Made by a program: the position numbers and the translations under genes
Notes under the pieces: model-generated
What the model was told of the DNA's origin: nothing
Databases searched by the model: none
Seen by the model: the letters and a program-made list of their open reading frames with translations, nothing else
In this document: positions 34,348 through 64,000 of the stretch, in pieces
Layout: the number at the start of each line of letters is the position of its first letter
How positions within the stretch are numbered: position 1 is the first letter of the stretch
NCBI GenBank assembly: GCA_017450465.1
Contig: JAFSUW010000029.1
Location: 41,572-105,571 of the forward strand
Reading direction: 5' to 3'
From: Clostridia bacterium
Lineage (GTDB): Bacteria; Bacillota; Clostridia; TANB77; RGIG9151
Length of the DNA stretch: 64,000 bases

Positions 34348-34497
34348 TATACTGCCTCCTTTGTTTTTTCTACGTCTACTATATCGTAACAAATTATATT
34401 TTTTATGCAAATTAATAAAATGTTGAAAATACTATTAAAATGCTATTCTCGTTCAATATGTGAACTAAAAAGTTAAAATTTTTATTAAAAAATTTTT

Positions 34498-34533: not shown

Positions 34534-34610
34534 TGGCGTGCCTGAGACGATTCGAACGTCCGGCCAACGGCTTAGAAGGCCGTTGCTCTATCCTGCTGAG
34601 CTACAGGCAC
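34534..34610 (-). tRNA. tRNA-Arg (anticodon TCT), CCA encoded
   Basis: Reverse complement reads GTGCCTGTAGCTCAGCAGGATAGAGCAACGGCCTTCTAAGCCGTTGGCCGGACGTTCGAATCGTCTCAGGCACGCCA. Cloverleaf with the TPsiC motif GTTCGAATC. Anticodon loop is CTTCTAA. Confidence 0.9.
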
Positions 34611-46041: not shown

Positions 46042-46755
46042 TTTATTCATATTTCCTGCTATCTTTTCTATTGCTTTTTTCTCAATGCGACTCACATAGG
46101 AACGCGAAATGTTAAGCATTTTTGCTATTTCATTTTGCGTTTTTTCACCTTTATCAGTAAGTCCATACCTAAGTGCAATAATTAGCTTTTCCCTATCAGT
46201 TAAAACATTCTCAATATCGTTATATAAGGCATTTGTATTAAGTTTTAAATTAACTTCTTCAAATGTTTCTTTTGCATCTGATTCTAAAATATCTATTAAG
46301 GATATCGAATTTCCTTCTTTATCGCTTCCTATTGGCTCATCTAGAGATATTTCGTTTTGCAGTTTCTTGCTACTCCTTAAATGCATCAAAATTTCGTTTT
46401 GAATGCATCTTGCAGCATATGTGGCAAATTTATGGCCCTTCATATAGTCAAAGGTTGTAACGGCTTTTATGAGCCCTATAGTGCCTATTGAAATTAAATC
46501 ATCATTATCTTTCCACGAAACAGAATATTTCTTCGCAATATGGACAACCAATCGCAAATTTCTTTCAATCAAAACATTTTTTGCGTCATTATCACCATTT
46601 TTGTATAATTCAAAATACATTTTCTCTTCGCTAGGCGTAAGTGGTTTTGGAAATGCATTCCCGCTACCACCTATAAAGCCAAACATAAATAATATGTTTT
46701 CAATTATGTATTTAATAATAGCAATAAATAACAAATATAGGCCCCCTTTTCGCAT
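46033..46755 (-). CDS. sigK: sporulation sigma factor SigK (pro-sigma-K); start codon uncertain
   Basis: Pro-sequence ...GGSGNAFPKPLTPSEEKMYFELYKNGD matches the SigK NAFPxPL processing region. Also has the sigma-70 regions 2 and 4 (ISRSYVSRIEKKA). The gene is not interrupted. Confidence 0.85.
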   Translation of the reverse strand: MRKGGLYLLFIAIIKYIIENILFMFGFIGGSGNAFPKPLTPSEEKMYFELYKNGDNDAKNVLIERNLRLVVHIAKKYSVSWKDNDDLISIGTIGLIKAVTTFDYMKGHKFATYAARCIQNEILMHLRSSKKLQNEISLDEPIGSDKEGNSISLIDILESDAKETFEEVNLKLNTNALYNDIENVLTDREKLIIALRYGLTDKGEKTQNEIAKMLNISRSYVSRIEKKAIEKIAGNMNKLK

Positions 46756-46812
46756 TAAAAAAGCAACTACACTATAATATGTAGTTGCCTTTATTTTTTT
46801 GCTTGTCAAAAA

Positions 46813-48135: not shown

Positions 48136-48552
48136 TTATACTCCAGCAGCATATCCTTGGTTTTCTCTTTGTGAATTTTCTATTCTTGCTTCTTTAATAG
48201 CTTTGCTCCAAGTATCTCTAATGTCTTCTACAAAATGTAGAATCTCTTCTAAGATGTCTCTATTTTTCTTAACATTTGCTTCAATTAATCTATCTAAGAA
48301 ATATGTATATAAATCATATAAGTTTTTAGCTATATCATATTTCATATCAAGTGTATTTCTAAGCTCTCTTACTATTGCCTCCGCTTTGCAAATGTAGAAG
48401 TTAGCTTTTTCATAGTCGTTTTCATCTATTGCTATTTGAGCAAACTTTATTCCTTTTATACAGCCATTATACAACATTAAAGTTAGTTCTTCTGGCGTTG
48501 CAGTAAGGACTGAATTTTGTTGATATTGGTAAACCGCTTTATTTAATGACAT
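48136..48552 (-). CDS. fliS: flagellar export chaperone FliS
   Basis: AVYQYQQNSVLTATPEELTLMLYNG is the FliS signature. Confidence 0.9.
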   Translation of the reverse strand: MSLNKAVYQYQQNSVLTATPEELTLMLYNGCIKGIKFAQIAIDENDYEKANFYICKAEAIVRELRNTLDMKYDIAKNLYDLYTYFLDRLIEANVKKNRDILEEILHFVEDIRDTWSKAIKEARIENSQRENQGYAAGV

Positions 48553-50793: not shown

Positions 50794-51174
50794 TTAATTT
50801 TTTGCATCAAAAAGTACACCTGCAATTTCTCGCAGTTTCTCTGAAAGCTCAATAGCTTCCTCAGATGGGATTTCAGCTATTACCTCTTTACTTTCTCTAT
50901 CAACTACTTTAATAGAAACCCTATTTAATTCTCCTTCTGTTTCATGAATCTTGAATTTAATTTGACTACCAGAGATCTTTTCAAACTGTTTATTTAGTTT
51001 TTCAACAGCTTCCTCGACTTTCTTTCTGTCAACCTCTTGGTTTGTCTTTTCAGGTTCATTTTTAACAACGGGTTCTCTTCCTGTTTGAACCCTTGTTTCG
51101 ACTTTTTGGGTTTCTGGGTTTGTAGTTTCAACCCTTTCATAATTTGAAACTACATTTGCAAATTCTACTTTCAT
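50794..51174 (-). CDS. flaG: flagellar protein FlaG
   Basis: FlaG family pattern ...KFKIHETEGELNRVSIKVVDRESKEVIAEIP. Confidence 0.8.
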   Translation of the reverse strand: MKVEFANVVSNYERVETTNPETQKVETRVQTGREPVVKNEPEKTNQEVDRKKVEEAVEKLNKQFEKISGSQIKFKIHETEGELNRVSIKVVDRESKEVIAEIPSEEAIELSEKLREIAGVLFDAKN

Positions 51175-51231: not shown

Positions 51232-51259
51232 ATATCGGTATAAGTTCACATAAACTTTA
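51232..51259 (-). promoter_or_regulatory. candidate sigma-D (sigma-28) promoter for flaG-fliD-fliS
   Basis: On the minus strand, TAAA-N15-TACCGATAT, compared with the consensus TAAA-N15-GCCGATAT. Confidence 0.5.
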
Positions 51260-51423: not shown

Positions 51424-52584
51424 TTATAGTCCTTGTAATAATTGTAATACTTGATTTGGTTGTTGATTTGCTTGTGCAAGCATTGCTGTAGCTGTTTGGT
51501 TAAGTATACTATCTTTTGTATATGTAACCATTTCAGCTGCCATATCAACATCACGAATACGTGATTCAGCAGCTGTTAAGTTTTCTTCACTCGCAGCTAA
51601 GGCATCTAAGGTATATTCCAACCTGTTCTGATAAGCACCAAGATCGCCTCTTGCGCTTGTTAATATATTTAACGCATTATCTATTGCATCTAGAGTATCA
51701 CATGCTTGATCTACGTCATCTATACTTAAATATGTAAGTCCAAGTGCAGCTGAACGCAAGTCTGGCATTTCTATTGTAAGAGCTCTATCTATTGAATTTG
51801 CACCAATTTGAAGGTTTGTCTTTCCTCCAGGTGATGTTTGTATCTTAAGTCCACTAATACTTGCAAGTGTCATATCCTTAAAGTTAAACTTAATACCAAC
51901 ATTTGAGCCATCTGCACCTTCAAACCTCATAAATCCAGAATATTTTGCATCTGTAATTGGGCCTGTTGTACTTGTTGCTGTATGTGTAGCTCCTTGTATT
52001 GAATAAGTAACTGTTACAACACCATCGCTATCTACACTAAAAGTATATTCTGTTTCATTCTCTGCGCCTGCAACATCTAATGTTTTTATTCCTTCAATTA
52101 AATCATATCCACCATCGGCATTTGCTTGATAAACAGTTGAATTAGCCTTGTCAGCTGACATTCCAAGTGTACCTTTTAATAAGTACGTACCATTAAATGA
52201 AGCTGTTTCTGCTATTCTATCAACCTCATCCCTAAGTTGTACTATCTCGGCTGTTATTGCTTCTTTTTCACCTGTTGATAGTATACCATTCATAGATTGA
52301 ACTGAAAGTTCTCTCATTCTTTGGAAAATATCACTAACTTGTTGTAATGCACCTTCTGCTGTTTGAATCATTGATATACCATCTTGTGCATTAAGCTGGG
52401 CCTTTTCCAAACCTCTTATCTGTGCTCTCATCTTTTCACTAATAGCAAGACCTGCAGCATCATCGCCTGCACTGTTAATTCTTAAGCCTGATGATAATTT
52501 CTCAAGTGAGCTTACTGTTCCTCTCTGGTTTACTACCAATTGATTTTGGGCATTAATTGCCGAAATGTTGTGATTAATCCTCAT
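51424..52584 (-). CDS. flagellin (386 aa, divergent paralog)
   Basis: MRINHNISAINAQNQL N-terminus and ...QPNQVLQLLQGL C-terminus. Confidence 0.95.
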   Translation of the reverse strand: MRINHNISAINAQNQLVVNQRGTVSSLEKLSSGLRINSAGDDAAGLAISEKMRAQIRGLEKAQLNAQDGISMIQTAEGALQQVSDIFQRMRELSVQSMNGILSTGEKEAITAEIVQLRDEVDRIAETASFNGTYLLKGTLGMSADKANSTVYQANADGGYDLIEGIKTLDVAGAENETEYTFSVDSDGVVTVTYSIQGATHTATSTTGPITDAKYSGFMRFEGADGSNVGIKFNFKDMTLASISGLKIQTSPGGKTNLQIGANSIDRALTIEMPDLRSAALGLTYLSIDDVDQACDTLDAIDNALNILTSARGDLGAYQNRLEYTLDALAASEENLTAAESRIRDVDMAAEMVTYTKDSILNQTATAMLAQANQQPNQVLQLLQGL

Positions 52585-52678
52585 GATTAATTCCTCCTTA
52601 TTTTTCTACCGTCTTGTCATTCCATGATCTTAAAGCTTTAAACATCCATAATAATGTCTTAAATCCTTTTCAAAAACA

Positions 52679-52705
52679 TTATCGTATTTTAGCGAAAATA
52701 CTTTA
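52679..52705 (-). promoter_or_regulatory. candidate sigma-D promoter for flagellin 51424..52584
   Basis: On the minus strand, TAAA-N15-TACGATAA. Confidence 0.4.
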
Positions 52706-52838
52706 TAGTTTTTTTAAACTTTTTTTGGTTTTTTAAAAAAAATATAGTGCATTTCCGCATAAACAGGGGGTTTTAATATTATTAATTTTTTTATTAAAAT
52801 ATTAACCCGCCTGTTTATACTTAAAAAGCACCATATAA

Positions 52839-53948
52839 TTATTGCAATAATGATAAAATTGTTTGAGGCTGCTGATTTGCTTGAGCAAGCATTGCCATAG
52901 CTGATTGGTTAAGTATACTATTCTTTGTATACGATACCATCTCACTAGCCATGTCTACATCACGAATACGTGATTCTGCATTGGTCAAGTTTTCATGTGT
53001 AGCCGTCAAGTTCTCAACTGCATACTCCATTCGATTCTGCATTGCTCCTAATACGGAACGTTGGGCCGATACTTTATCTATTGCATAATCGATTGCAATT
53101 AGAGTATTGTTGGCTTCTTCATTAGTTGCAATTGAAATAGTCATCTTTTCTGAGTTTGCTGATAAACCTGTAGAGCTCATATCATCAATACCAATAAATA
53201 ATAAATCTTCTTCATAAGTATTGGCACCAATTTTGAATACTGCTCTTTTGCCATCATCAGATTCAGTTTGTGTTGTAATAGTTGCGCCATTTAATTCTGA
53301 TGCAGCAATTGGAGTTTTACCAAGATTTATTTCAATTCCTGCGGATGCAAATCTGACAACTCCGCTTATTGTCTGACCTATAGTAAGTTCTTCTTTACCA
53401 TCTGTTCCCCAGGTGATTTTTGCCTTACCATCTGTCACCTCTATCGAATACGTTGTACCTTCTTCGGCATTTGATACACTAACTGAATACTTCTCATCTA
53501 CTGTGGTTGAATCCAGTTGTGTTGCAAGAGAACCATCTAGTATTTTCTTTGAGTTAAACGTACTAGATGTTGCAATTCTGTCTATCTCATCTCGAAGTGT
53601 TGCAAGTTCTGTCGAAACAGAAACTCGATCATCTTCTGTTAATACACCTGTATTTTGTGATTTAACTACTAGTTCTCTCATTCTCTGCAATATATCAGTA
53701 GTTTGTTGAAGAGCACCTTCTGCCGTTTGTATCATTGAGATACCATCTTGGGCATTGTTTTTAGCTTGTGCTAAACCTCTAATTTGTGCTCTCATCTTTT
53801 CACTGATTGCAAGTCCCGATGCGTCATCTGCCGCACTGTTAATTCTTAAACCTGACGATAGTTTCTTTATAGAACCCTCAACTCTTGATTGGTTCCCTGA
53901 TAATTTGTTTTGGGCATTAATAGCCATTATATTTGTATTTATTCTCAT
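52839..53948 (-). CDS. flagellin (369 aa)
   Basis: MRINTNIMAINAQNKL...[16 protein letters not shown]. Confidence 0.95.
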   Translation of the reverse strand: MRINTNIMAINAQNKLSGNQSRVEGSIKKLSSGLRINSAADDASGLAISEKMRAQIRGLAQAKNNAQDGISMIQTAEGALQQTTDILQRMRELVVKSQNTGVLTEDDRVSVSTELATLRDEIDRIATSSTFNSKKILDGSLATQLDSTTVDEKYSVSVSNAEEGTTYSIEVTDGKAKITWGTDGKEELTIGQTISGVVRFASAGIEINLGKTPIAASELNGATITTQTESDDGKRAVFKIGANTYEEDLLFIGIDDMSSTGLSANSEKMTISIATNEEANNTLIAIDYAIDKVSAQRSVLGAMQNRMEYAVENLTATHENLTNAESRIRDVDMASEMVSYTKNSILNQSAMAMLAQANQQPQTILSLLQ

Positions 53949-54115
53949 TTTACATTCCTCCTTGAATTTTTAAGAAAACCCTTCCGTGGGCTTCCTAGAG
54001 AGCTTTTTACCTCGGCCCTGAGTTTAACTCTCTAAAACCTTCATCGTCATTTTTTTTCATTACTTAACATTTATTTAAAAAATTTTTTAGAGAACAAGTT
54101 TATATTTAAAAATAA

Positions 54116-54143
54116 AAAGGAGGCCTAAGCCTCCTTTTTATTT
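54116..54143. terminator. terminator downstream of flagellin 54148..55254
   Basis: aaaaaggaggcctaagcctccttttt. Confidence 0.65.
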
Positions 54144-54147
54144 TTTA

Positions 54148-55254
54148 TTAACCAAGTAATGATAAGATTTGTTGTGGTTGTTGATTTGCTTGTGCAAGCA
54201 TTGCCATAGCTGATTGATTTAAGATGCTATTCTTTGTGTAAGTTACCATTTCAGCAGCCATGTCTACATCACGGATACGTGATTCAGCAGCTGTTAAGTT
54301 TTCACTTGTTGTTGATAAGTTTTCTACTGCGTATTCCATTCTGTTTTGAACAGCACCTAAACTTGCTCTTTGGCTTGATACTTTGTTGATTGCATTATCA
54401 AGATTTTTTAATGCTGCATCTGCATTTGCTGTTGTACTTATATCAATAGTTACACCTAATGCTGCTGATCTCATATCACCAATACCAACAAATAATTGGT
54501 CTTCGTCATATGTGTTAGCACCAATTTTAAATGCAGCTTTTTCTTTTCCACCTGCAGCAGATGCTGCTTTTGTTACTATATTTTTGCCGTTTATTGATGT
54601 TGCTGCAACATCAGTTGTACCAACATCAATTTCTATTCCAGCATTTGCAAATTTAATTACACCATTTATTGTTTGTGGTACAGCAACTTCTTCTGTTTTT
54701 GCAGTACCATCAGTCCAACTAAGCGTAATCTTACTTGATGTAGCTGCTATAGAATATGTAATTCCTTCTTTTGCGTTTGCTACATTTACTTTGCAATTAC
54801 TGCCAAGTGTTGTAGTGTTTAATTGTGTACCCATATCACCATTTAATAATTTCTTTGTATTAAATGTTGTTGAGTTTGCAATTCTATCTACTTCATCTTT
54901 TAATGCTGTTAATTCTGTTGTGATTGATGTTTGGTCATTTGATGTTAAAACACCAGTGTTTTGTGCCTTTACAACTAGTTCTCTCATTCTTTGAAGTATA
55001 TCTGTTGTTTGTTGTAATGCACCTTCTGCTGTTTGTAACATAGAAATACCATCTTGAGCATTACTTTGTGCTTGATTTAAGCCACGAATCTGTGATCTCA
55101 TCTTTTCACTTATAGCAAGGCCAGATGCATCATCTGCAGCTCCGTTAATTCTTAAACCTGATGATAATTTTTTGATTGATCCTTCTACTTTACCTTGATT
55201 ACCTGTTAATTTGTTTTGGGCATTTAATGCCATAATATTGGTATTAATTCTCAT
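54148..55254 (-). CDS. flagellin (368 aa)
   Basis: Conserved flagellin N- and C-termini. Confidence 0.95.
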   Translation of the reverse strand: MRINTNIMALNAQNKLTGNQGKVEGSIKKLSSGLRINGAADDASGLAISEKMRSQIRGLNQAQSNAQDGISMLQTAEGALQQTTDILQRMRELVVKAQNTGVLTSNDQTSITTELTALKDEVDRIANSTTFNTKKLLNGDMGTQLNTTTLGSNCKVNVANAKEGITYSIAATSSKITLSWTDGTAKTEEVAVPQTINGVIKFANAGIEIDVGTTDVAATSINGKNIVTKAASAAGGKEKAAFKIGANTYDEDQLFVGIGDMRSAALGVTIDISTTANADAALKNLDNAINKVSSQRASLGAVQNRMEYAVENLSTTSENLTAAESRIRDVDMAAEMVTYTKNSILNQSAMAMLAQANQQPQQILSLLG

Positions 55255-55311
55255 AATAATTCCTCCTTGAATTTATTAATTTCTTAACCTCCATGTAACC
55301 TTATCTCTTAA

Positions 55312-56136
55312 TTAGCTTAAGAGTGATAAAATTTGTTGTGGTTGTTGATTAGCTTGTGCAAGCATTGCCATAGCTGATTGATTTAAGATACTATTCTTTG
55401 TGTAGTTAACCATTTCAGCAGCCATATCTACGTCACGAATACGTGATTCAGCAGCTGTTAGGTTTTCCTTAGTTGTTGATAAGTTCTCAATTGCATATTC
55501 CATTCTATTTTGTACAGCACCAAGACTTGCTCTTTGGCTTGAAACTGTATTTATGGCAGTATCAATATTGGTTAAAGCAGCATTTGTGTTTGTTGCATTA
55601 CTAATATTGATTGTTACGCCTAAATCAGATGATTTCATAGAAGCAATATTTACTGTAATTGAGTCAACTGTATCTGTATTTGCACCTATTTTAAATGTTG
55701 CACCATTTGTTGCTAAACTACCATCTAACAATTTTTTGGTATTAAAAGTTGTTGAATTAGCGATTCTATCAATTTCACTGTTTAGTGCTGTTAATTCTGT
55801 CGTTATTGATGTTTTATCGTTATCTGTTAAAACACCAGAGTTTTGTGCTTTTACAACTAGTTCTCTCATTCTTTGAAGAATGTCTGTTGTTTGTTGTAAT
55901 GCACCTTCTGCTGTTTGGATCATTGATATACCATCTTGGGCATTGCTTTGTGCTTGACCAAGACCACGAATCTGTGCTCTCATCTTTTCACTTATAGCAA
56001 GACCAGATGCATCGTCAGATGCACTGTTAATTCTTAAACCAGATGATAATTTCTTAATTGATCCTTCAACTTTACCTTGGTTACCGGTTAATTTGTTTTG
56101 AGCATTTAATGCCATAATATTGGTATTTATTCTCAT
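55312..56136 (-). CDS. flagellin (274 aa)
   Basis: Conserved flagellin N- and C-termini with a short central domain. Confidence 0.95.
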   Translation of the reverse strand: MRINTNIMALNAQNKLTGNQGKVEGSIKKLSSGLRINSASDDASGLAISEKMRAQIRGLGQAQSNAQDGISMIQTAEGALQQTTDILQRMRELVVKAQNSGVLTDNDKTSITTELTALNSEIDRIANSTTFNTKKLLDGSLATNGATFKIGANTDTVDSITVNIASMKSSDLGVTINISNATNTNAALTNIDTAINTVSSQRASLGAVQNRMEYAIENLSTTKENLTAAESRIRDVDMAAEMVNYTKNSILNQSAMAMLAQANQQPQQILSLLS

Positions 56137-56198
56137 TTTACATTCCTCCTTGAACTATAAACATCTTCCCTGACTTATTAAAGTCATGAGCCTATATT

Positions 56199-57023
56199 CT
56201 AACCTAATAGTGAAAGTATTTGTTCAGGTTGTTTATTTGATTGTGCAAGCATTGCCATAGCAGTTTGATTTAATATACTATTCTTTGTATAGTTAACCAT
56301 TTCAGCAGCCATATCTACGTCACGAATACGTGATTCAGCAGCTGTTAAGTTTTCTTGTGTTGTAGATATGTTTTCAATAGCATATTCCATCCTGTTTTGG
56401 ACAGCACCAAGATTTGCTCTTTGGCTTGAAACTGTATTAATAGCAGCATCAAGTTTTGTTAGAGCTTCATTAGTCTTAGCGGCAGTCGAAATATCAGTAG
56501 ATATATTAAGTGCTGATGAAGTCATCGCATTAATATTTACTGTTATTGAATCAACCGCATCTGTGTTTGCACCAATTTTAAATGTTGCACCAGTACTTGC
56601 TAAATCACCGTTTAGCAACTTTTTGGTGTTAAATGTTGTTGAATTAGCGATTCTATCAACTTCACTGTTTAGAGCTGTAAGCTCTGTAGTGATTGATGTT
56701 TTATCGCTATCCGTAAGAACACCTGAATTTTGTGCTTTAACTACTAGTTCTCTCATCCTTTGTAAAATATCAGTCGTTTGCTGAAGTGCACCCTCTGCTG
56801 TTTGAATCATTGATATACCATCTTGGGCATTACTTCCAGCTTGGGCAAGTCCTCTAATCTGAGCTCTCATCTTTTCACTTATAGCAAGACCAGATGCATC
56901 ATCAGATGCAGTATTGATCCTTAAGCCAGATGATAATTTCTTGATAGAAGACTCAACGTGACCATTATTTTTACTAAGCATATTCCTAGCATTTAAGGCC
57001 ATAACATTGGTATTAATCCTCAT
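56199..57023 (-). CDS. flagellin (274 aa from MRINTN)
   Basis: Start moved two codons in, to MRINTNVMALNARNML, which has an RBS. Confidence 0.9.
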   Translation of the reverse strand: MRINTNVMALNARNMLSKNNGHVESSIKKLSSGLRINTASDDASGLAISEKMRAQIRGLAQAGSNAQDGISMIQTAEGALQQTTDILQRMRELVVKAQNSGVLTDSDKTSITTELTALNSEVDRIANSTTFNTKKLLNGDLASTGATFKIGANTDAVDSITVNINAMTSSALNISTDISTAAKTNEALTKLDAAINTVSSQRANLGAVQNRMEYAIENISTTQENLTAAESRIRDVDMAAEMVNYTKNSILNQTAMAMLAQSNKQPEQILSLLG

Positions 57024-57064
57024 ATACATTCACCCTCTTCCTTGAAGGATTATGTATGAGGCTC

Positions 57065-57112
57065 AATATTCTTTTGGTTTAATTTTTAATGTGGCTCACA
57101 ATATTGAGCCCC
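57065..57112. terminator. hairpin terminator between flagellin genes
   Basis: gaggctcaatattc...gaatattgagcc inverted repeat. Confidence 0.5.
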
Positions 57113-57126
57113 ATACGACCTACTTA

Positions 57127-57960
57127 TTACCTAAGTAATGATAAAATTGCTTGTGGTTGTTGATTAGCTTGTGCAAGCATTGCCATAGCTGATTGATTTA
57201 AGATACTATTCTTTGTGTAACTTACCATTTCGCTAGCCATATCTACATCACGAATACGTGATTCAGCAGCTGTTAAGTTTTCACTTGTTGTTGATAAGTT
57301 TTCTACTGCATATTCCATTCTGTTTTGAACAGCACCAAGTTTTGCTCTTTGACTTGAAACTGTATTAATAGCAGCATCAAGTTTTGTTAAAGCTGTGCTT
57401 GCTCCACCAGCTGTTGTAATATCTAACGCATTAATTTGAAGACTTGTTGCATCCATAGCACCTATTGTAACTTTAATTGAGTCAACTGCGTCTGTGTTTG
57501 CACCAATTTTAAATACTGCTGCATCAGCAGCGTCTTCTAAGTCACCATTTAATAATTTCTTGGTGTTAAATGTTGTTGAAGAAGCAATTCTATCAACTTC
57601 ATTTTTTAATGCTGTTAACTCTGTTGTAATAGATGATTGGTCTTGGCTTGTTAACACACCAGTATTTTGTGCTTTTACAACTAGTTCTCTCATTCTTTGA
57701 AGAATGTCTGTTGTTTGTTGTAATGCACCTTCTGCTGTTTGAATCATTGATATACCATCTTGAGCATTACTTTGTGCTTGATTTAAGCCACGGATCTGTG
57801 ATCTCATCTTTTCACTTATAGCGAGGCCTGATGCATCATCAGCAGCTCCATTAATTCTTAAACCTGATGATAATTTCTTGATTGATCCTTCAACTTTACC
57901 TTGGTTACCTGTTAACTTATTTTGGGCATTTAATGCCATAATGTTTGTATTAATTCTCAT
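57127..57960 (-). CDS. flagellin (277 aa)
   Basis: Conserved flagellin termini. Confidence 0.95.
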   Translation of the reverse strand: MRINTNIMALNAQNKLTGNQGKVEGSIKKLSSGLRINGAADDASGLAISEKMRSQIRGLNQAQSNAQDGISMIQTAEGALQQTTDILQRMRELVVKAQNTGVLTSQDQSSITTELTALKNEVDRIASSTTFNTKKLLNGDLEDAADAAVFKIGANTDAVDSIKVTIGAMDATSLQINALDITTAGGASTALTKLDAAINTVSSQRAKLGAVQNRMEYAVENLSTTSENLTAAESRIRDVDMASEMVSYTKNSILNQSAMAMLAQANQQPQAILSLLR

Positions 57961-58016
57961 AATAATTCCTCCTTGAATTTTTTTTAATAATTTTTCTTCC
58001 TTGATCTAACAAATTA

Positions 58017-58457
58017 CTATTCTAGCAATTTTAGTATCTGTTCGGGTTTTTTATTTGCTTGGGCTAATATCGCACTCTTTGAATGGTTAATCATACGACT
58101 CTTGGTCTCATTTACCACTTCTTCAGCCATATTAACATCACGAATACGAGATTTAGATGCATTGATGTTTTCAGCAACAATATCATCTTCTCCTTTTATA
58201 GCTACTTCCTTAGATTCGAATAAACCTTCCATATCAGCTAATACTTCATTAGCTTTTGAGTATACTACTTCTGGTTCTTGGCGTTTATCGATTTCCCTCA
58301 TTTGTTCATGCATTTTCTCGTTAACACGAGGATCTACATTTTTCTTGTTTTCGCTTATTTTAAGTCCAGAATTTCTCTCTTCACGAGATTCATCTGGTTT
58401 TCTTGACGCTATGTTTTGAAGACTAAGCGCAGCTACATTATCTATTCTCATATTCAA
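58017..58457 (-). CDS. mini-flagellin-like protein (146 aa; flagellin D0 N- and C-terminal segments only, charged linker)
   Basis: MNMRIDNVAALSLQNIA... at the N-terminus and ...SRIRDVNMAEEVVNETKSRMINHSKSAILAQANKKPEQILKLLE at the C-terminus. Confidence 0.7.
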   Translation of the reverse strand: MNMRIDNVAALSLQNIASRKPDESREERNSGLKISENKKNVDPRVNEKMHEQMREIDKRQEPEVVYSKANEVLADMEGLFESKEVAIKGEDDIVAENINASKSRIRDVNMAEEVVNETKSRMINHSKSAILAQANKKPEQILKLLE

Positions 58458-58504
58458 TCCCCTCCTCCCTGAAACAATAAATTCCTTTTATTTTTTTTAC
58501 TCAT

Positions 58505-58530
58505 GTAGTAGGCGAGTAAATCGCCCCTAC
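58505..58530. repeat. GC-rich hairpin (GTAGTAGGCG...CGCCCCTACA family)
   Basis: gtagtaggcgagtaaatcgcccctacaa. Confidence 0.5.
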
Positions 58531-58532
58531 AA

Positions 58533-59357
58533 TTAGCTTAAGAGTGATAAAATTTGTTGTGGTTGTTGATTAGCTTGAGCAAGCATTGCCATAGCTGATT
58601 GATTTAAGATGCTATTCTTTGTGTATGTAACCATCTCAGCAGCCATATCTACGTCACGAATACGTGATTCAGCAGCTGTTAAGTTTTCACTTGTTGTTGA
58701 TAAGTTCTCGATAGCATATTCCATTCTGTTTTGTACTGCACCAAGTTTTGCTCTTTGACTTGATACTGTATTGATTGCTGTGTCAAGGTTTGTTAAAGCA
58801 TCATCTGCAGCTGTCTTTATATTGATTGTAATACCTAAAGCAGCAGATCTCATGTCACCAATTGTGATTGAGATTGAGTCAACTGCGTCTGTATTAGCAC
58901 CAATTTTAAATGTTGCTGCATTTGCTGCTAACTTCAAATCACCATTTAATAGTTTCTTTGTGTTGAATGTTGTAGAACTTGCGATTCTATCAACTTCATC
59001 TTTTAATGCTGTTAATTCTGTTACTATTGAGTCTTGGTCATTTGTTGTTAAAACACCAGTATTTTGTGCTTTTACAACTAGTTCTCTCATTCTTTGAAGA
59101 ATGTCTGTTGTTTGTTGTAATGCACCTTCTGCTGTTTGGATCATTGATATACCATCTTGAGCATTACTTTGTGCTTGGTTAAGTCCACGAATCTGTGATC
59201 TCATCTTTTCGCTTATAGCGAGGCCTGATGCATCGTCAGAAGCTCCGTTAATTCTTAAACCTGATGATAATTTCTTGATTGATCCTTCTACTTTACCTTG
59301 ATTACCTGTTAATTTGTTTTGGGCATTTAATGCCATAATGTTTGTGTTAATTCTCAT
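58533..59357 (-). CDS. flagellin (274 aa)
   Basis: Conserved flagellin termini. Confidence 0.95.
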   Translation of the reverse strand: MRINTNIMALNAQNKLTGNQGKVEGSIKKLSSGLRINGASDDASGLAISEKMRSQIRGLNQAQSNAQDGISMIQTAEGALQQTTDILQRMRELVVKAQNTGVLTTNDQDSIVTELTALKDEVDRIASSTTFNTKKLLNGDLKLAANAATFKIGANTDAVDSISITIGDMRSAALGITINIKTAADDALTNLDTAINTVSSQRAKLGAVQNRMEYAIENLSTTSENLTAAESRIRDVDMAAEMVTYTKNSILNQSAMAMLAQANQQPQQILSLLS

Positions 59358-59751
59358 AATTATTCCTCCTTGAATATTTTTTTCTTCTTATAATAAGAAG
59401 AGTTCCTTAAGAAGATAAATCCTTTTACCTTCTCTTTACTAATTTACTTAGTACCATCCTCCTTTAGGTGAATGATTTTCTTCCGTGAATTTAGGTGTCA
59501 TTAAAATATTTTTGACTTATTATGTCCCGACCAATTCTTTTGGAAGTGACTAATCTACTTCGCCGTATCATAAATTAATCATTTATGTAATTTTTACAAC
59601 GCTAAAGTTAAAGCCGTATAACCTTATTATTGTAAAAAAATTACCAAAACTTTTTAAACCTTAAATAGAACAGTAAATTTAGTTTGTAGTTCTAGATATT
59701 AGTTATAAGAGTAGCCCCCTCACTAATATCTAGAAATACATTTACTGCTTA

Positions 59752-60576
59752 CTATCTAAGTAATGACAAAATTTGTTGTGGTTGTTGATTAGCTTGTGCT
59801 AACATTGCCATAGCTGATTGATTTAATATGCTATTCTTTGTGTAACTTACCATCTCAGCAGCCATATCTACGTCACGAATACGTGATTCAGCAGCTGTTA
59901 AGTTTTCACTTGTTGTTGATAAGTTTTCAATTGCATATTCCATTCTATTTTGTACTGCACCAAGTTTAGCTCTTTGGCTTGATACTGTGTTTATTGCATT
60001 ATCTAAGTTTGTTAAAGCTGTACTTGCTGCACTTGCAGTTGTAATATCAGTTGTTACTCCTAAAGCTGTTGATGTCATTGTACCTATTGTTACTGTTATT
60101 GAGTCAACTGTATCTGTATTTGCACCAATCTTAAATGTTGCACCATTTGTTTTTAAATCACCATTTAATAATTTCTTTGTATTAAAGGTTGTTGAAGAAG
60201 CAATTCTATCAACTTCATCTTTTAATGCTGTTAACTCAGTTGTGATTGATGATTGGTCTTGTGCTGTTAAAACACCAGTATTTTGTGCTTTTACAACTAG
60301 TTCTCTCATTCTTTGAAGAATGTCAGTTGTTTGTTGTAATGCACCTTCTGCTGTTTGTATCATTGAGATACCATCTTGTGCGTTACTTTGTGCTTGGTTA
60401 AGTCCACGAATCTGTGATCTCATCTTTTCACTGATTGCAAGGCCTGATGCATCATCAGCAGCTCCATTAATTCTTAAACCTGATGATAATTTTTTGATTG
60501 ATCCTTCAACTTTTCCTTGGTTTCCTGTTAATTTGTTTTGTGCGTTTAATGCCATAATGTTTGTGTTAATTCTCAT
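59752..60576 (-). CDS. flagellin (274 aa)
   Basis: Conserved flagellin termini. Confidence 0.95.
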   Translation of the reverse strand: MRINTNIMALNAQNKLTGNQGKVEGSIKKLSSGLRINGAADDASGLAISEKMRSQIRGLNQAQSNAQDGISMIQTAEGALQQTTDILQRMRELVVKAQNTGVLTAQDQSSITTELTALKDEVDRIASSTTFNTKKLLNGDLKTNGATFKIGANTDTVDSITVTIGTMTSTALGVTTDITTASAASTALTNLDNAINTVSSQRAKLGAVQNRMEYAIENLSTTSENLTAAESRIRDVDMAAEMVSYTKNSILNQSAMAMLAQANQQPQQILSLLR

Positions 60577-60626
60577 AATACATTCCTCCTTGAATTTTTT
60601 TGTATAAAGTAAATCCCTTTACTTTT

Positions 60627-60762
60627 ACTTATTATGTAATTTTTATGACGCTATACTTTTAAATCCAGTACACCCATAAAATTATTACGTTTTTACTTAT
60701 TATGTAACCTTTGGGGTGTTATACTTTTAAATCTAGTACGCCCATAAAATTATTACCTTTTT
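60627..60762. repeat. 2 x 68-bp tandem direct repeat in a flagellin intergenic region
   Basis: acttattatgtaatttttatgacgctatacttttaaatccagtacacccataaaattattacgttttt, then a ~85%-identical second copy. Confidence 0.7.
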
Positions 60763-60794
60763 TTAAATTCAACAAATAAATCTCTTAAATTTTT

Positions 60795-60829
60795 TTGTAG
60801 TAGGCGGACTTATAGTCCGCCACTACATT
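60795..60829. repeat. GC-rich hairpin (TGTAGTAGGCGG family)
   Basis: tgtagtaggcggacttatagtccgccactacatta. Confidence 0.55.
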
Positions 60830-60876
60830 AACGGCTATTTCAATTACTTTTTGTGGGTAAAGAAATCCCTACATTA

Positions 60877-61701
60877 TTAGCTTAAGAGTGATAAAATTTG
60901 TTGTGGTTGTTGATTAGCTTGTGCAAGCATTGCCATAGCTGATTGATTTAATATGCTATTCTTTGTATAACTTACCATTTCGCTAGCCATATCTACATCA
61001 CGAATACGTGATTCAGCAGCTGTTAAGTTTTCACTTGTTGTTGATAAGTTTTCAATTGCATATTCCATTCTGTTTTGTACTGCACCAAGTTTAGCTCTTT
61101 GTGTTGATACTCTATTAATAGCAGTATCTAAGTTTGTTAAAGCTGTTTTTGCATTTTCTGCTGTTGTGATATCAATTGTTACACCTAAATCTGCTGATTT
61201 CATTGAACCAATTGTTACAGTTATTGAGTCAACAGCATCTGTGTTAGCACCAATTTTAAATGTAGCTCCGTTTGTTCCAAGATTTCCATTTAATAATTTC
61301 TTGGTGTTAAATGTTGTTGATTCTGCTATTCTGTCGATTTCATCTTTTAGTGATGTTAACTCTGTTGTGATTGAAGCTTGGTCTTGGCTTGTTAACACAC
61401 CTGTGTTTTCTGCTTTTACAACTAGTTCTCTCATTCTTTGAAGAATGTCTGTTGTTTGTTGTAATGCACCTTCAGCTGTTTGGATCATTGATATACCATC
61501 TTGTGCGTTACTTTGTGCTTGATTTAATCCTCTTATCTGTGCTCTCATTTTTTCACTGATAGCAAGACCAGATGCATCATCTGCTGCACCATTGATTCTT
61601 AAACCTGATGATAATTTCTTGATTGATCCTTCTACTTTACCTTGGTTACCTGTTAATTTGTTTTGAGCATTTAATGCCATAATGTTTGTGTTAATTCTCA
61701 T
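60877..61701 (-). CDS. flagellin (274 aa)
   Basis: Conserved flagellin termini. Confidence 0.95.
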   Translation of the reverse strand: MRINTNIMALNAQNKLTGNQGKVEGSIKKLSSGLRINGAADDASGLAISEKMRAQIRGLNQAQSNAQDGISMIQTAEGALQQTTDILQRMRELVVKAENTGVLTSQDQASITTELTSLKDEIDRIAESTTFNTKKLLNGNLGTNGATFKIGANTDAVDSITVTIGSMKSADLGVTIDITTAENAKTALTNLDTAINRVSTQRAKLGAVQNRMEYAIENLSTTSENLTAAESRIRDVDMASEMVSYTKNSILNQSAMAMLAQANQQPQQILSLLS

Positions 61702-61810
61702 AATAAATTCCTCCTTGAATTTTTTGTTTTTACATCCTTGTGTTTCTATGTAATTTTTATAGCATCATATACTTAGCCGTTAGTATAAATACTATAAAAT
61801 AATTACCAAC

Positions 61811-61838
61811 ACTTGTAGGCGAAGTTTCCTTCGCCTTA
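61811..61838. repeat. GC-rich hairpin (TGTAGGCG family)
   Basis: ttgtaggcgaagtttccttcgccttaag. Confidence 0.5.
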
Positions 61839-61848
61839 AGTCTTGTTA

Positions 61849-62682
61849 TTAGCTAAGTAATGATAAAATTGCTTGTGGTTGTTGATTTGCTTGTGCAAGC
61901 ATTGCCATAGCTGATTGATTAAGTATGCTATTCTTTGTGTAACTTACCATTTCTTGAGCCATATCTACATCACGGATACGTGATTCAGCAGCTGTTAAGT
62001 TTTCGCTTGTTGTTGATAAGTTTTCAATTGCATATTCCATTCTGTTTTGTACAGCACCAAGTTTTGCTCTTTGTGTTGATACTGCATTGATTGCAGCGTC
62101 AAGTTTTGTTAATGCTGTACTTGCTCCAGATGCTGTTGTAATGTCTAAGTTATTAACTTGAAGACTTGTAGCATCCATAGCACCTATTGTTACTGTTAAT
62201 GTATCTACTGTTTCTGTATTAGCACCAATTTTGAATTTTGCAGCATCTGCTGCATCTTCTAAGTCACCATTTAATAATTTCTTTGTATTAAATGTTGTTG
62301 AACTTGCGATTCTATCGATTTCACTTTTTAATGCTGTTAACTCAGTTGTAATAGATGTTTGGTCTTGGCTTGTTAACACACCTGTGTTTTCAGCTTTTAC
62401 AACTAGTTCTCTCATTCTTTGTAATATATCTGTTGTCTGTTGTAACGCGCCTTCTGCTGTTTGAATCATTGATATACCATCTTGTGCGTTACTTTGTGCT
62501 TGGTTTAAGCCCCTTATCTGTGCTCTCATTTTTTCACTTATTGCGAGTCCTGATGCGTCATCTGCTGCACCATTGATTCTTAAACCTGAAGACAATTTCT
62601 TAATTGATCCTTCTACCTTATTTTGGTTACCTGTTAATTTGTTTTGGGCATTTAATGCCATGATGTTTGTGTTAATTCTCAT
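61849..62682 (-). CDS. flagellin (277 aa)
   Basis: Conserved flagellin termini. Confidence 0.95.
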   Translation of the reverse strand: MRINTNIMALNAQNKLTGNQNKVEGSIKKLSSGLRINGAADDASGLAISEKMRAQIRGLNQAQSNAQDGISMIQTAEGALQQTTDILQRMRELVVKAENTGVLTSQDQTSITTELTALKSEIDRIASSTTFNTKKLLNGDLEDAADAAKFKIGANTETVDTLTVTIGAMDATSLQVNNLDITTASGASTALTKLDAAINAVSTQRAKLGAVQNRMEYAIENLSTTSENLTAAESRIRDVDMAQEMVSYTKNSILNQSAMAMLAQANQQPQAILSLLS

Positions 62683-62892
62683 TTTACATTCCTCCTTGAA
62701 TTTTTTGATAGGAAAAGCACATCCTTATACTTTTCTTTATCTTTTGTAGACTTTTTACTATATTTCTTTGCCGTGTCAAAATATAGTGCTTCTTTATAGT
62801 ATCTAAAGTCCTAAAATACTATAAAGCTAAGTAATATTTACTTAGTGAAAACAATTAAAACATTTTAATTGCTTTCATTAAGTAAATGTTAC

Positions 62893-62928
62893 TGTAGGGG
62901 GCGATATTAGTCGCCCTCTACAAAACAT
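62893..62928. repeat. GC-rich hairpin (CTGTAGGGGGCG...CGCCCTCTACA)
   Basis: actgtagggggcgatattagtcgccctctacaaaac. Confidence 0.6.
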
Positions 62929-62936
62929 TTAGGCAA

Positions 62937-63770
62937 TTATCTAAGTAATGATAAAATTTGTTGTGGTTGTTGGTTAGCTTGTGCAAGCATTGCCATAGCT
63001 GATTGATTAAGTATGCTATTCTTTGTGTAACTTACCATTTCTTGTGCCATATCTACATCACGGATACGTGATTCAGCAGCTGTTAAGTTTTCACTTGTTG
63101 TTGATAAGTTTTCTACTGCATATTCCATTCTATTTTGTACTGCACCAAGTTTTGCTCTTTGTGTTGATACACTATTAATAGCAGTATCTAATGCTGTTAA
63201 TGCAGCACTTGCTCCTTCTGCTGTTGTTATGTTTAAGTTATGAATTTGAAGTGTTGTTGCATCCATAGCACCTATTGTTACTGACAAAGTATCTACTGTT
63301 TCTGTATTTGCACCAATCTTAAATTTAGCAGCATTTTCATCAGTTCCTAAACTACCATTTAATAGTTTCTTTGTATTGAATGTTGTTGAAGAAGCAATTC
63401 TATCTACTTCATCTTTTAATGAACTTAACTCAGTTGTAATAGATGCTTGGTCTTGTGCTGTTAACACACCTGTGTTTTCTGCTTTTACAACTAGTTCTCT
63501 CATTCTTTGTAAAATATCTGTTGTTTGTTGTAATGCACCTTCTGCTGTTTGGATCATTGATATACCATCTTGTGCGTTACTTCTTGCTTGGTTTAATCCT
63601 CTTATCTGTGCTCTCATTTTTTCACTTATTGCTAAGCCAGATGCGTCATCAGATGCACCATTAATTCTTAAACCTGATGATAATTTCTTAATTGATCCTT
63701 CTACTTTACCTTGATTACCTGTTAATTTGTTTTGGGCATTTAATGCCATGATGTTTGTGTTAATTCTCAT
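62937..63770 (-). CDS. flagellin (277 aa)
   Basis: Conserved flagellin termini. Confidence 0.95.
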   Translation of the reverse strand: MRINTNIMALNAQNKLTGNQGKVEGSIKKLSSGLRINGASDDASGLAISEKMRAQIRGLNQARSNAQDGISMIQTAEGALQQTTDILQRMRELVVKAENTGVLTAQDQASITTELSSLKDEVDRIASSTTFNTKKLLNGSLGTDENAAKFKIGANTETVDTLSVTIGAMDATTLQIHNLNITTAEGASAALTALDTAINSVSTQRAKLGAVQNRMEYAVENLSTTSENLTAAESRIRDVDMAQEMVSYTKNSILNQSAMAMLAQANQQPQQILSLLR

Positions 63771-63888
63771 AATAAATTCCTCCTTGAATTTTTAATTTTT
63801 TAGTACTTCCATGTACTTTTTTTCTATTGTTTTATAATTTTTTATACGACTAATAAACAGTTAGAATTTTTAATCATTCTACTGTGAA

Positions 63889-64000
63889 TTAGCTAAGTAA
63901 TGATAGAATTGCTTGTGGTTGTTGATTTGCTTGTGCAAGCATTGCCATAGCTGATTGATTAAGTATGCTATTCTTTGTGTAACTTACCATTTCAGCAGCC
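63889..64000 (-). CDS. flagellin, C-terminal end only (gene continues past the window end)
   Basis: ttagctaagtaatgatagaattgcttgtggttgttgatttgcttgtgcaagcattgccatagc matches the conserved flagellin 3' coding end. Confidence 0.85.

Follow-up and report, generated by a model that had tools for sequence, protein, structure and literature searches.

Why should an array of 13 flagellin genes contain one gene that encodes a protein only about half the length of a flagellin? The question arises in a 64,000-nucleotide stretch of DNA (the window) from an uncultured ruminant-gut Clostridia bacterium, in which the short gene has seven flagellin genes upstream and six downstream on the locus map. Short flagellin-like reading frames are generally written off as pseudogenes or leftovers of assembly. 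The original prediction described a 146-residue protein encoded at 58017-58457 that had kept only the D0 termini of flagellin, joined by a charged linker. The reading frame is real and lies on the minus strand, but it starts at the ATG at 58451 and not at the TTG, giving a mini-flagellin of 144 residues (58017..58451, stop codon at 58017-58019; minus strand, as for all coordinates written with two dots in the following). This coding sequence is matched exactly by an NCBI record, MBQ7668892.1, which is named hypothetical protein and belongs to a MAG labelled "Clostridia bacterium". In the relative at locus L002, an in-frame TAG stands at the position of the TTG.

The C-terminal 52 residues of the mini-flagellin are a genuine flagellin CD1 tail and CD0. 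This module (codons 92–144, 58020..58178; VAENINASKSRIRDVNMAEEVV...AILAQANKKPEQILKLLE), which by homology is the FliS-binding region, matched the second half of the Pfam Flagellin_C profile only (positions 36–86 of 86), with an E-value of 6.2e-10 and a score of 39.7 bits against a gathering threshold of 23, in agreement with the conserved flagellin C-terminus that had been predicted. BLASTP comparison with the neighbouring flagellin gave 54% identity and 81% positives over the same 52 residues. Residues 92–143 aligned without gaps to residues 252–303 of Hag (6gow_D), and the C-terminus also aligned to residues 3–54 of 1ory_B, the FliC peptide that was crystallized with FliS. CD0 is complete (≈40 residues, up to the conserved hydrophobic LxLL at its end), and about 16 CD1 residues are retained, including the invariant Glu-Asn. 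The Asn, N95, corresponds to Hag position 255 in the alignment to 6gow_D and is invariant in the mini-flagellin, in its 222- and 102-residue relatives (described below) and in flagellins. The polar surface of CD0 has become recharged with Lys and Glu (YTKN to ETKS, QQPQ to KKPE and LSLL to LKLLE). In the AlphaFold2 model from the larger, 88-sequence alignment (see below), the C-terminal module had pLDDT values of 82–93.

The flagellin-like N-terminus also reflects true homology. Pfam Flagellin_N (PF00669) did not match the mini-flagellin even at E ≤ 1, and the relationship was recovered by profile–profile comparison only: hhalign aligned residues 1–79 to flagellin residues 1–95 with an E-value of 2.6e-6, or 5.9e-11 when the 222-residue relatives were added. 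Codons 1–33 (58353..58451; MRIDNVAALSLQNIASR...SGLKIS), aligned by hhalign to flagellin residues 1–37, are derived from ND0 and retain the flagellin-invariant M1, N5, A8, S-S-G and I32, with residues 17–27 being variable. Since the homology extends to residue 79, the K/E/R-rich linker that had been thought to replace D1 is largely a diverged ND1a helix (codons 43–80, 58212..58325; VNEKMHEQMREIDK...VVYSKANEVLADMEGLFES), as seen both with hhalign and in the alignment of the 222-residue relatives. This helix carries an 11-residue deletion, the NAQDGISMIQ block having been lost, and corresponds to flagellin through EKMHEQMREIDK, equivalent to EKMRSQIRGLNQ, and YSKANEVLADMEGLF, equivalent to EGALQQTTDILQRMREL. 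With these residues and the CD1 tail, more than D0 has been kept. An alternative HMMER alignment, which assigned residues 65–91 to the CD1 helix, was rejected in favor of ND1a because the YSKANExLxDME block of the 222-residue relatives sits inside their Flagellin_N-matching region. Far from behaving as a linker, this segment is under the tightest constraint of all residues N-terminal to the CD1–CD0 module, with a pN/pS of 0.127 for residues 41–91, compared to 0.37 for residues 1–40. The truly variable, linker-like stretch comprises residues ≈17–42. By the homology of both its ends, the mini-flagellin is descended from a flagellin.

All of the universal D1 and spoke motifs of flagellin have been deleted or substituted, namely the DDAxGLA spoke, NAQDGIS (NAxxGISxIQ), QRxRE, the IGAN hairpin and LGAxQNR, each of which is at least 85–100% conserved in 73 aligned flagellins. 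The alignment also shows that ND1b is absent, and the β-hairpin and most of CD1 are missing as well. No NCBIfam flagellin model reached its cut-off; the best score, 46.4 bits, fell below the corresponding cut-off of 352 (the cut-offs range from 332 to 983), and the matches covered only the C-terminal ≈52 residues. These losses bear on the possibility, which we consider unlikely, that the mini-flagellin is a minor structural subunit. Such a subunit would enter the filament by way of its ND0/CD0 coiled coil (the inner tube), so that a gap or a half-height D1 would result. It might occupy a defined position, such as the boundary between two flagellin types, the filament's proximal end or the space below the FliD cap, where it would alter the mechanics of the filament or terminate its growth. 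Both halves of D0 keep their hydrophobic positions, CD0 is constrained as in real flagellins (pN/pS 0.115 for the C-terminal 52 codons, versus 0.119 in the neighbouring flagellins), and the gene sits in the middle of the array. Moreover, helices are predicted at residues 41–57, 60–80 and from 88 onward, and the highly conserved central helical segment could form a small substitute for D1 together with the CD1 tail. However, the blocks that form D1 and the spokes, invariant in the 73 flagellins, are lost or charge-reversed, polar surface positions of D0 have turned to Lys or Glu, and the 102-residue relative has no D1 at all, whereas even the smallest structural flagellins that have been characterized retain D0 and D1 in full (PMC5895748). 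The loss of every universal D1 assembly motif instead supports a non-polymerizing protein that may still be able to bind its partners.

The mini-flagellin is under purifying selection and is not a remnant. Seven full-length variants were found, 144–146 residues long and 82–99% identical, and a flagellin–mini-flagellin–flagellin synteny is common to all the contigs; the identical protein is present on 10 contigs from different ruminant samples. The seven variants are free of frameshifts and stops, with synonymous divergence reaching 0.6, and dN/dS was 0.04–0.27 in all 15 pairwise comparisons and low in all three regions of the protein. The C-terminal module is constrained as tightly as that of the flanking flagellins (0.115 versus 0.119, as above). 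It had been suggested that frameshifted homologs or a lack of conservation would mark the gene as decaying, whereas the homologs are full-length, unframeshifted and syntenic. A decaying remnant, or a reading frame kept for an effect in cis, such as translation or RNA spacing or the coupling of neighbouring flagellin genes, is therefore disfavored, and we regard it as very improbable. An origin by internal deletion, the rarity of the family, its annotation at NCBI as a hypothetical protein and the occurrence of singleton deletion derivatives such as P0009 (see below) would all fit such a reading. Besides the selection, the conserved Shine–Dalgarno sequence and leader and the intact 222- and 102-residue sister families speak against it. 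Even in its best-conserved part, the mini-flagellin is only 54–60% identical to the neighbouring flagellins, a distance showing that gene conversion is not what maintains it.

A search for similar proteins in related genomes, as the original prediction had proposed, found the 222- and 102-residue forms in equivalent slots on other ruminant-gut contigs. Throughout the resulting series of 222, 144 and 102 residues, ND0, SGLKI and the last ≈50 residues, starting from the invariant "EN", are always kept; all members match Flagellin_C from profile position 34–36 onward and have both E94 and N95. The 222-residue relatives match Pfam Flagellin_N, while the 102-residue relative has neither any D1 nor the central conserved segment and still keeps the termini, which argues that the termini themselves are functional. 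Together, these proteins, all of them under purifying selection, constitute a natural deletion experiment on flagellin, in which precisely the polymerization core is gone and the termini recognized by chaperones, FliW and the export gate are kept, and the series delimits the minimal flagellin module still worth keeping.

The same series weighs on the idea that the mini-flagellin is a secreted non-flagellar effector that, like C. jejuni FlaC or the flagellin-homologous proteins of Vibrio, uses the export apparatus as a route only and has an extracellular role, for example in adhesion, within the matrix, or as a signal to other microbes or the host. The export N-terminus and the FliS-binding C-terminus are kept and the assembly motifs lost, as would be expected of such a protein; secreted flagellin homologs that are not part of the filament have precedents (PMC5466977; PMC6692518), and the conserved central segment could be an effector surface. 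That segment, however, is short, resembles only flagellin ND1a, and is dispensed with in the 102-residue relative. Because the TLR5-relevant D1 is gone, the mini-flagellin could not work in the way that Campylobacter jejuni FlaC does. Overall, an effector role appears rather improbable.

From its spacers and terminators, the region at 54148..59357 appears to be one transcription unit of six genes, consisting of a flagellin, the mini-flagellin and four further flagellins, with internal spacers of 56–103 nt. The flagellin upstream of the mini-flagellin (58533..59357; 274 residues, D0 and D1 only) follows a 394-nt intergenic region and is likely the first gene of the operon. The flagellin downstream (57127..57960; 277 residues, from the ORF list and Pfam) is probably co-transcribed with the mini-flagellin; its ATG at 57960 lies 56 nt downstream, exactly as predicted, and the spacer (57961..58016), which contains AUCAAGGAAGAA and UUCAAGGAGGAAU (two GGA motifs), is too short for a promoter. 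Only the genes at 54148 and 51424 were followed by a hairpin with a U-tract, the one after 54148 being the first strong intrinsic terminator. The only site recovered in a search for SigD-type promoters precedes flaG, with none close to the mini-flagellin, and an Rfam scan of the array identified no known RNA element. The GC hairpin that had been noted just before the gene does exist (58508..58530; GUAGGGGCGAUUUACUCGCCUAC) and lies between the upstream flagellin, whose stop codon it directly adjoins, and the mini-flagellin leader, but it is followed by an A-run instead of a U-run. It is thus not a classical terminator, nor was it called by the terminator scan. Equivalent hairpins with other stem sequences are present in L001–L004 and L097.

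The leader of the mini-flagellin is conserved and of the flagellin type, with two GGA motifs, similar to the leaders of the flagellin genes in the array. Its Shine–Dalgarno sequence (58459..58473; UUCAGGGAGGAGGGG), which ends 7 nt before the ATG and is nearly identical in five relatives, has a GGA embedded in it and resembles the Shine–Dalgarno-overlapping CsrA site BS2 of Clostridioides difficile fliC (CTAAGGAGGG; PMC8523840), suggesting that it may bind CsrA. The upstream GGA motif (58481..58489; AAAAGGAAU) is a putative BS1-like site; the flagellin gene at 58533 has a comparable GUAAAAGGAUUUA in its leader. A tblastn search of the 64-kb window with a Bacillus subtilis CsrA sequence gave no match, and the gyrA-to-flgN map of locus L090 contains neither fliW nor csrA. 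A 73-residue gene call in L006 was considered as a possible csrA, but contains a stop codon and is spurious. The gene for the presumed chaperone partner, fliS (48136..48552; Pfam FliS, E 6e-39), is one of the flaG–fliD–fliS–flgN genes clustered at the array's distal end.

The regions kept in the mini-flagellin coincide with the published FliS and FliW maps. FliS binding requires an intact CD0, and FliW requires the N-terminal domain of flagellin (PMC5466977). In Hag, the N-terminal 72 residues are sufficient for FliW, a second site lies in D1-C at residues 240–260, and FlhA-C protects residues 275–300 (PMC6070490); a conserved Asn falls within the second FliW site, according to Titz 2006 as cited in PMC5466977. 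The original view of a protein that keeps its partner-binding and secretion ends and cannot polymerize is thus partly supported, by the maps and the missing assembly motifs, and was wrong in the detail of its anatomy of D0 plus a charged linker. Judging by these comparisons, the mini-flagellin is presumably no longer a filament subunit and would be maintained for its terminal modules. With the export and chaperone ends kept and the filament-building parts missing, it may tune flagellin traffic. Our leading explanation, to which we assign a probability of about 45%, is that it mimics flagellin without polymerizing and interacts with FliS, FliW and the export gate.

According to this model, the mini-flagellin would be produced together with the 13 structural flagellins and captured by FliS through CD0 and, if the genome has FliW–CsrA, also by FliW through the N-terminal part and Asn95. 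It would then dock at FlhA and leave by the flagellar type III system, but the outer (D1) tube of the filament could not lock it in. Being captured and exported without D1 locking, it would act as a mimic that competes with, or buffers, the structural flagellins at FliS, FliW and the export gate, thereby tuning flagellin translation, export rate or filament length. Its probable fate would be release into the medium. Several observations count against the mimic. Segments homologous to the FliW-sufficient ≈72 N-terminal residues are present, but the contact region is strongly diverged, with DDAxGLA lost and residues 17–42 poorly constrained. C. jejuni FlaC has the conserved Asn and yet does not bind FliW (PMC5466977), and the model provides no partner for the tightly constrained residues 41–91. 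The 64-kb window carries neither a fliW nor a csrA gene. AlphaFold2 predicted extended helices and no compact fold, both with a 14-sequence family alignment (pLDDT 62, pTM 0.23) and with an 88-sequence alignment that included flagellins (pLDDT 67.7, pTM 0.28), and Foldseek searches of the PDB returned nothing significant for either model, so that the mimic receives no support from the low-confidence fold.

The closest known relatives are minimal D0–D1 flagellins, such as B. subtilis Hag, the B. cereus flagellin and the flanking 274–277-residue proteins, with which the mini-flagellin shares ancestry, as seen in MRI(N/D)xN...SGL(R/K)I...EKMxxQxR and in the C-terminal ENLxAxxSRIRDxxMA...LAQANxxPxxxLxLL. 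It also shares an operon with the flanking genes and a similar leader, with a GGA embedded in the Shine–Dalgarno sequence. Unlike these flagellins, it is half as long, lacks ND1b, the β-hairpin and most of CD1, and has a Lys/Glu-recharged polar face on CD0. The C. jejuni FlaC protein and flagellin-homologous proteins of Vibrio are likewise flagellin paralogs with conserved termini that are not needed for, or built into, the filament; FlaC is both a FliS-binding protein and an export substrate of the flagellar type III system (PMC5466977). Those proteins, however, have complete D0 and D1 domains and 250 residues or more, whereas all that the mini-flagellin retains of D1 is part of ND1a and about 16 CD1 residues. 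Moreover, the mini-flagellin sits inside a structural flagellin operon and its secretion is only predicted.

FlaG, a regulator of filament length that is represented at this locus by a genuine 126-residue FlaG (50794-51174), is similarly small (about 120–145 residues) and encoded in the flagellin locus, but is unrelated in sequence; the FlaG domain (PF03646) had no Pfam match in the mini-flagellin. FlaG antagonizes delivery of FliS–flagellin complexes to FlhA (PMC11536152), the kind of effect proposed for the mini-flagellin, but does so by targeting FlhA directly, whereas the mini-flagellin would be a FliS-bound substrate mimic. With the Hag–FliW–CsrA switch of B. subtilis, C. difficile and C. 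jejuni, it has in common the mapped FliW regions (the N-terminal part and the Asn) and, like CsrA-controlled flagellin leaders, two GGA motifs, one of them within the Shine–Dalgarno sequence. There, however, the sensor is the structural flagellin itself and not a dedicated truncated paralog, and the N-terminal contact region of the mini-flagellin has diverged. The B. subtilis YvzB protein corresponds to the C-terminal part of a flagellin and lacks the N-terminal D0. Like YvzB and other truncated flagellin reading frames, which may lie close to the main flagellin gene or elsewhere, the mini-flagellin is short and flagellin-homologous, but it has kept both termini and selection on it has been demonstrated. 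A literature search for characterized equivalents of a natural mini-, truncated or D0-only flagellin, or of YvzB, found none.

If the mini-flagellin is a substrate mimic, it would be a regulator of a new type, acting on flagellin export and homeostasis beside FlaG, FlgM and FliW–CsrA, and would help to explain how bacteria with more than 10 flagellin genes coordinate them. A broader proposal, which we find doubtful, is that ruminant-gut Clostridia with very large arrays carry a lineage of flagellin proxies, an old divergent paralog whittled down from 222 to 144 to 102 residues and stripped of all but its export signal, FliW contacts and FliS-binding CD0. The cytoplasmic level of the proxy, set by type III export, would titrate FliW and FliS and so coordinate the translation and delivery of the 13 flagellins. 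It would constitute a protein-level checkpoint similar to FlgM, but derived from the substrate, and would build nothing itself. The mini-flagellin is also predicted to be a ready-made minimal FliS- and type III-targeting tag for secretion engineering.

The family is small, consisting of three groups at the 90% level, all from ruminant-gut metagenomes, so its effect may be subtle or lineage-specific. A scan of GTDB species representatives with the single protein found no relative of the mini-flagellin, and a scan of the same representatives with the family alignment gave no family member among the best 80 matches, which were ordinary flagellins matching at the C-terminus only. P0009, a 155-residue protein that is 76% identical to flagellins, was considered as a further family, but was rejected: it is represented by one 998-bp contig alone, and either a recent deletion or a mis-assembly may account for it. 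A scan of JGI metagenomes returned two loci only, both with already known variants; locus L097 provided the DNA for P0002.

The mini-flagellin ORF lies on the minus strand, where a TTG at 58457 gives the 146-aa protein of the original prediction and an ATG at 58451 a protein of 144 aa. The ATG is the true start (58017-58451), because the NCBI product from the same MAG (MBQ7668892.1, "hypothetical protein", Clostridia bacterium) has 144 aa, every homologue opens with MR[IV]DN, the Shine–Dalgarno sequence GGAGGAGGGG stops 7 nt 5' of the ATG, and relative L002 has an in-frame TAG at the TTG position.

The C-terminal part of the protein is clearly flagellin as judged by its alignments. It matched Pfam Flagellin_C with an E-value of 6.2e-10, over profile positions 36-86 of 86 only, and residues 92-143 showed 54% identity and 81% positives to the next flagellin by BLASTP. 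[quoted passage not shown] Despite the absence of a Pfam Flagellin_N score, profile–profile comparison identifies the N-terminal part as flagellin too: residues 1-79 matched flagellin 1-95 with an E-value of 2.6e-6 for the mini family alone and 5.9e-11 with the 222-aa relatives added, and these relatives match Flagellin_N themselves (P0007, E 6.8e-8). Most of the charged linker thought to have replaced D1 is therefore a diverged ND1a helix, in which EKMHEQMREIDK corresponds to flagellin EKMRSQIRGLNQ and YSKANEVLADMEGLF to flagellin EGALQQTTDILQRMREL, with the NAQDGISMIQ block deleted. Also absent are the end of ND1a, the whole of ND1b, the beta-hairpin and variable region, and CD1 except for its last ~16 residues. 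The proposed flagellin homology at both ends was thus borne out, but the protein consists of more than D0 termini. These comparisons establish its ancestry and anatomy.

The window holds 12 flagellin genes (51424-63770) and the 3' end of a 13th. The full locus was found in a second sample (L090, 1-20435), in the order gyrA (divergent), seven flagellins, the mini, six flagellins, flaG, fliD, fliS and a flgN-like gene, the last four confirmed by Pfam and NCBIfam. Thirteen flagellin genes and the mini run head-to-tail from gyrA to flaG-fliD-fliS-flgN (window 51424-64000, minus strand), an unusually large array. Ten of the 13 flagellins are of a minimal D0-D1 type (274-277 aa), and the three closest to flaG are longer (368, 369 and 386 aa). 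The flagellin at 56199-57029 (minus strand) is listed with the start MYMRINT, two codons 5' of the MRINT start common to its paralogues; its start is probably the ATG at 57023. The mini itself is not FlaG.

Six further mini variants, 82-99% identical and 144-146 aa long, were found in metagenome assemblies, and ten contigs, from different ruminant samples, encode the identical protein. Flanking genes, where available, always placed the mini between two flagellins. Nei–Gojobori estimates on codon alignments gave dN/dS of 0.04-0.27 in all 15 pairs, with dS up to 0.6. By region, pN/pS was 0.37 for residues 1-40, 0.127 for 41-91 and 0.146 for 92-144; over the last 52 codons in the same four taxa it was 0.115 for the mini versus 0.119 for the adjacent flagellin. 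Even the best-conserved part is only 54-60% identical to flagellins, so gene conversion from the neighbors cannot explain its preservation. Evidence of a decaying remnant, or a lack of conservation in relatives, had been named as the case against a functional gene. Purifying selection, the six intact further variants and constant synteny argue that the mini is not such a remnant, and it is very improbable that it is one, or an ORF retained only for an effect in cis.

A search for related short flagellin-like proteins, as originally proposed, recovered on metagenome contigs not only the 144-146-aa variants but also longer (midi) and shorter (micro) relatives. When 1.84 billion representatives were searched exhaustively by profile, only two proteins fell below E 1e-30. 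The midi proteins (P0007, P0156-P0161; 221-225 aa) are encoded in the order gyrA, flagellin, midi, 53 nt, flagellin; they have ND1a and ND1b and a shortened CD1, and lack the hairpin. The mini proteins (the window ORF and the six variants) retain part of ND1a and ~16 CD1 residues, and their genes are followed by a flagellin after 56 nt, the spacing noted originally. The micro proteins (P0246-P0249; 102 aa) have no D1 at all: ND0 is followed by SGLKIN, a 16-residue connector and a C-terminal module formed by the last 52 residues. Their gene lies between two flagellin genes with a flagellin-type leader upstream, as on ruminant-gut contig L099 (1357-1665). There are five near-identical copies of the micro form, two of which appear as 116 aa through a gene caller's read-through across a TGA codon. 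Common to all three size classes are a Flagellin_C match from profile position 34-36 to 86 and an invariant Glu-Asn (E94-N95 in the mini). Micro and midi share the derived residues ENLNA, IHN, KKH, SAIL and PE, suggesting, though not proving, that the three are one old paralogue lineage that was progressively shortened. The series is a neat natural experiment, whose weight is limited by the uncultured organisms, the very small family and a function proposed by analogy. None of the three was found in 185,579 GTDB species representatives, probably because short-read MAGs collapse flagellin arrays. A singleton on a 998-bp ENA contig (P0009, 155 aa) corresponds to an array-type flagellin with a clean deletion in its interior (junction ...TGVLT|EENLTAAES...) and is substituted at many invariant positions; it may be a mini-flagellin of recent origin, a pseudogene or an assembly error. 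A 73-aa gene call on a JGI contig (L006, 952-1173) was rejected as spurious, since it contains an in-frame stop under translation table 11; its neighbor is gyrA, as in the window's species.

Compared with columns at least 85% conserved in 73 flagellins, the mini has kept M1, N5, A8, Ser-Ser-Gly, I32, Glu-Lys-Met, Q50 and R52 on the N-terminal side, and E94, N95, A98, S101, R102, I103, R104, D105, M108, A109, E111, V113, T116, K117, A127, L129-N133, L140, L142 and L143 on the C-terminal side. It lacks the DDAxGLA spoke motif (100% conserved in flagellins), NAxxGISxIQ, IGAN and LGAxQNR; the QRxRE arginines have become Asp and Glu, and several polar CD0 surface positions now carry Lys or Glu. Because it stays below the Flagellin_N threshold and the NCBIfam cut-offs and has none of the D1 motifs, the mini appears to fall outside the structural flagellin family in a functional sense. 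We consider it unlikely to serve as a minor structural or terminating subunit. Structure prediction, proposed originally as a check, yielded helices at 6-15, 41-57, 60-80 and from 88 onward, but confidence was high at 91-144 only, no compact fold appeared, and fold searches with the AF2 models returned no matches. Such an extended, low-confidence model would be expected of flagellin termini, which are disordered in the monomer, and carries no information on function.

Published binding maps offer a guide to what was kept. In C. jejuni, binding by FliS requires an intact CD0 and binding by FliW the N-terminal domain, and a conserved Asn on the C-terminal side is reported to be crucial when FliW binds Hag (PMC5466977). 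N95 of the mini falls opposite Hag position 255 in the alignment. In B. subtilis, FliS wraps D0-C, FliW protects flagellin residues 11-34, 50-72 and 240-260, with 1-72 sufficient for binding, and FlhA-C protects 61-72, 236-249 and 275-300 (PMC6070490). By analogy, the pieces kept by selection would be those contacting FliS, FliW and the export gate, and the pieces lost those building the outer tube. The best-supported reading, to which we assign a probability of about 0.45, is that the mini mimics flagellin without polymerising and acts on FliS, FliW and the export gate. It would be made together with the flagellins, bound by FliS and perhaps also FliW, then handed to FlhA for export, yet unable to lock into the filament, and would therefore compete with or buffer real subunits. 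We infer all of these binding, export and regulatory steps. Such a mimic would be conceptually close to FlaG antagonism at the FliS–FlhA step (PMC11536152). The mini also recalls the non-filament flagellin paralogues already known, although none found described in the literature searched is nearly as reduced; that it is a secreted effector of the FlaC/FHP type seems rather improbable.

An exact 12-mer, TCAAGGAGGAAT, a Shine–Dalgarno sequence with an embedded GGA, occurs upstream of nine flagellin genes (nine sites within 53954-63787, minus strand; 0.38 expected by chance). Flagellin genes with long upstream regions have a second motif, A(A/C)AAGGAT(G/T)T, ~25 nt further upstream. The pair resembles the two proposed CsrA sites of C. 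difficile fliC (TGACAAGGATGT and CTAAGGAGGG; PMC8523840) and looks like a BS1/BS2 pair. The same arrangement of two motifs is seen in the mini leader, AUAAAAGGAAUUUAUUGUUUCAGGGAGGAGGGG, which is near-invariant in five relatives, while the hairpin beside it has a different sequence in each. CsrA might thus control the mini and flagellin leaders; no csrA was found in the 64-kb window. The hairpin that had been placed directly before the mini does adjoin its leader (58508-58530, minus strand), and its structure is conserved through differing stem sequences, but it has no U-tract. Strong intrinsic terminators follow just two genes, those at 54148 and 51424, and spacers from 58533 down to 54148 are 56-103 nt; the layout suggests a six-gene operon with the mini as second gene.

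Hairpins of the form GUAG...GC-rich stem...CUAC, again with no U-tract, follow several flagellin stops (58508-58530, ~60790-60820, ~61810-61835 and ~62890-62920, minus strand). The stems vary from gene to gene and from relative to relative; these hairpins may serve in mRNA stabilisation or processing and thereby adjust how strongly array members are expressed relative to one another. Long regions upstream of flagellin genes (59358-59751, 60577-60876 and 61702-61848, minus strand; L006 2214-2605) share GTAAT-N-TTTT...TAAAAATTACATA elements, present twice in one region, and an ACGGC(T/G)AAG box. Elements and box may be the array's promoter or operator, and do not fit the SigD consensus TAAA-N15-GCCGATA. 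TAAA-N17-CCGATA (51233-51259, minus strand), the window's single SigD/sigma-28-like match, lies upstream of flaG, and none was found upstream of any flagellin gene there.

Adjoining the flagellar block are genes for SigK (46033-46809, minus strand; NCBIfam equivalog score 317.8 versus a cut-off of 298.65) and SpoIIR (40545-41144, plus strand), so the organism is probably a spore-former. Two very large proteins of 1175 aa (24659-28186) and 2003 aa (28399-34410), both on the minus strand, carry divergent InlB B-repeats, Ig/PKD domains and a type I dockerin, with an SLH domain in the larger, suggesting that this motile organism has a surface system of the cellulosome type. Finally, a gene for a TraG/VirD4-type coupling protein (35526-37412, minus strand) adjoins a tRNA gene (34537-34610) and may mark the edge of an integrated conjugative element.
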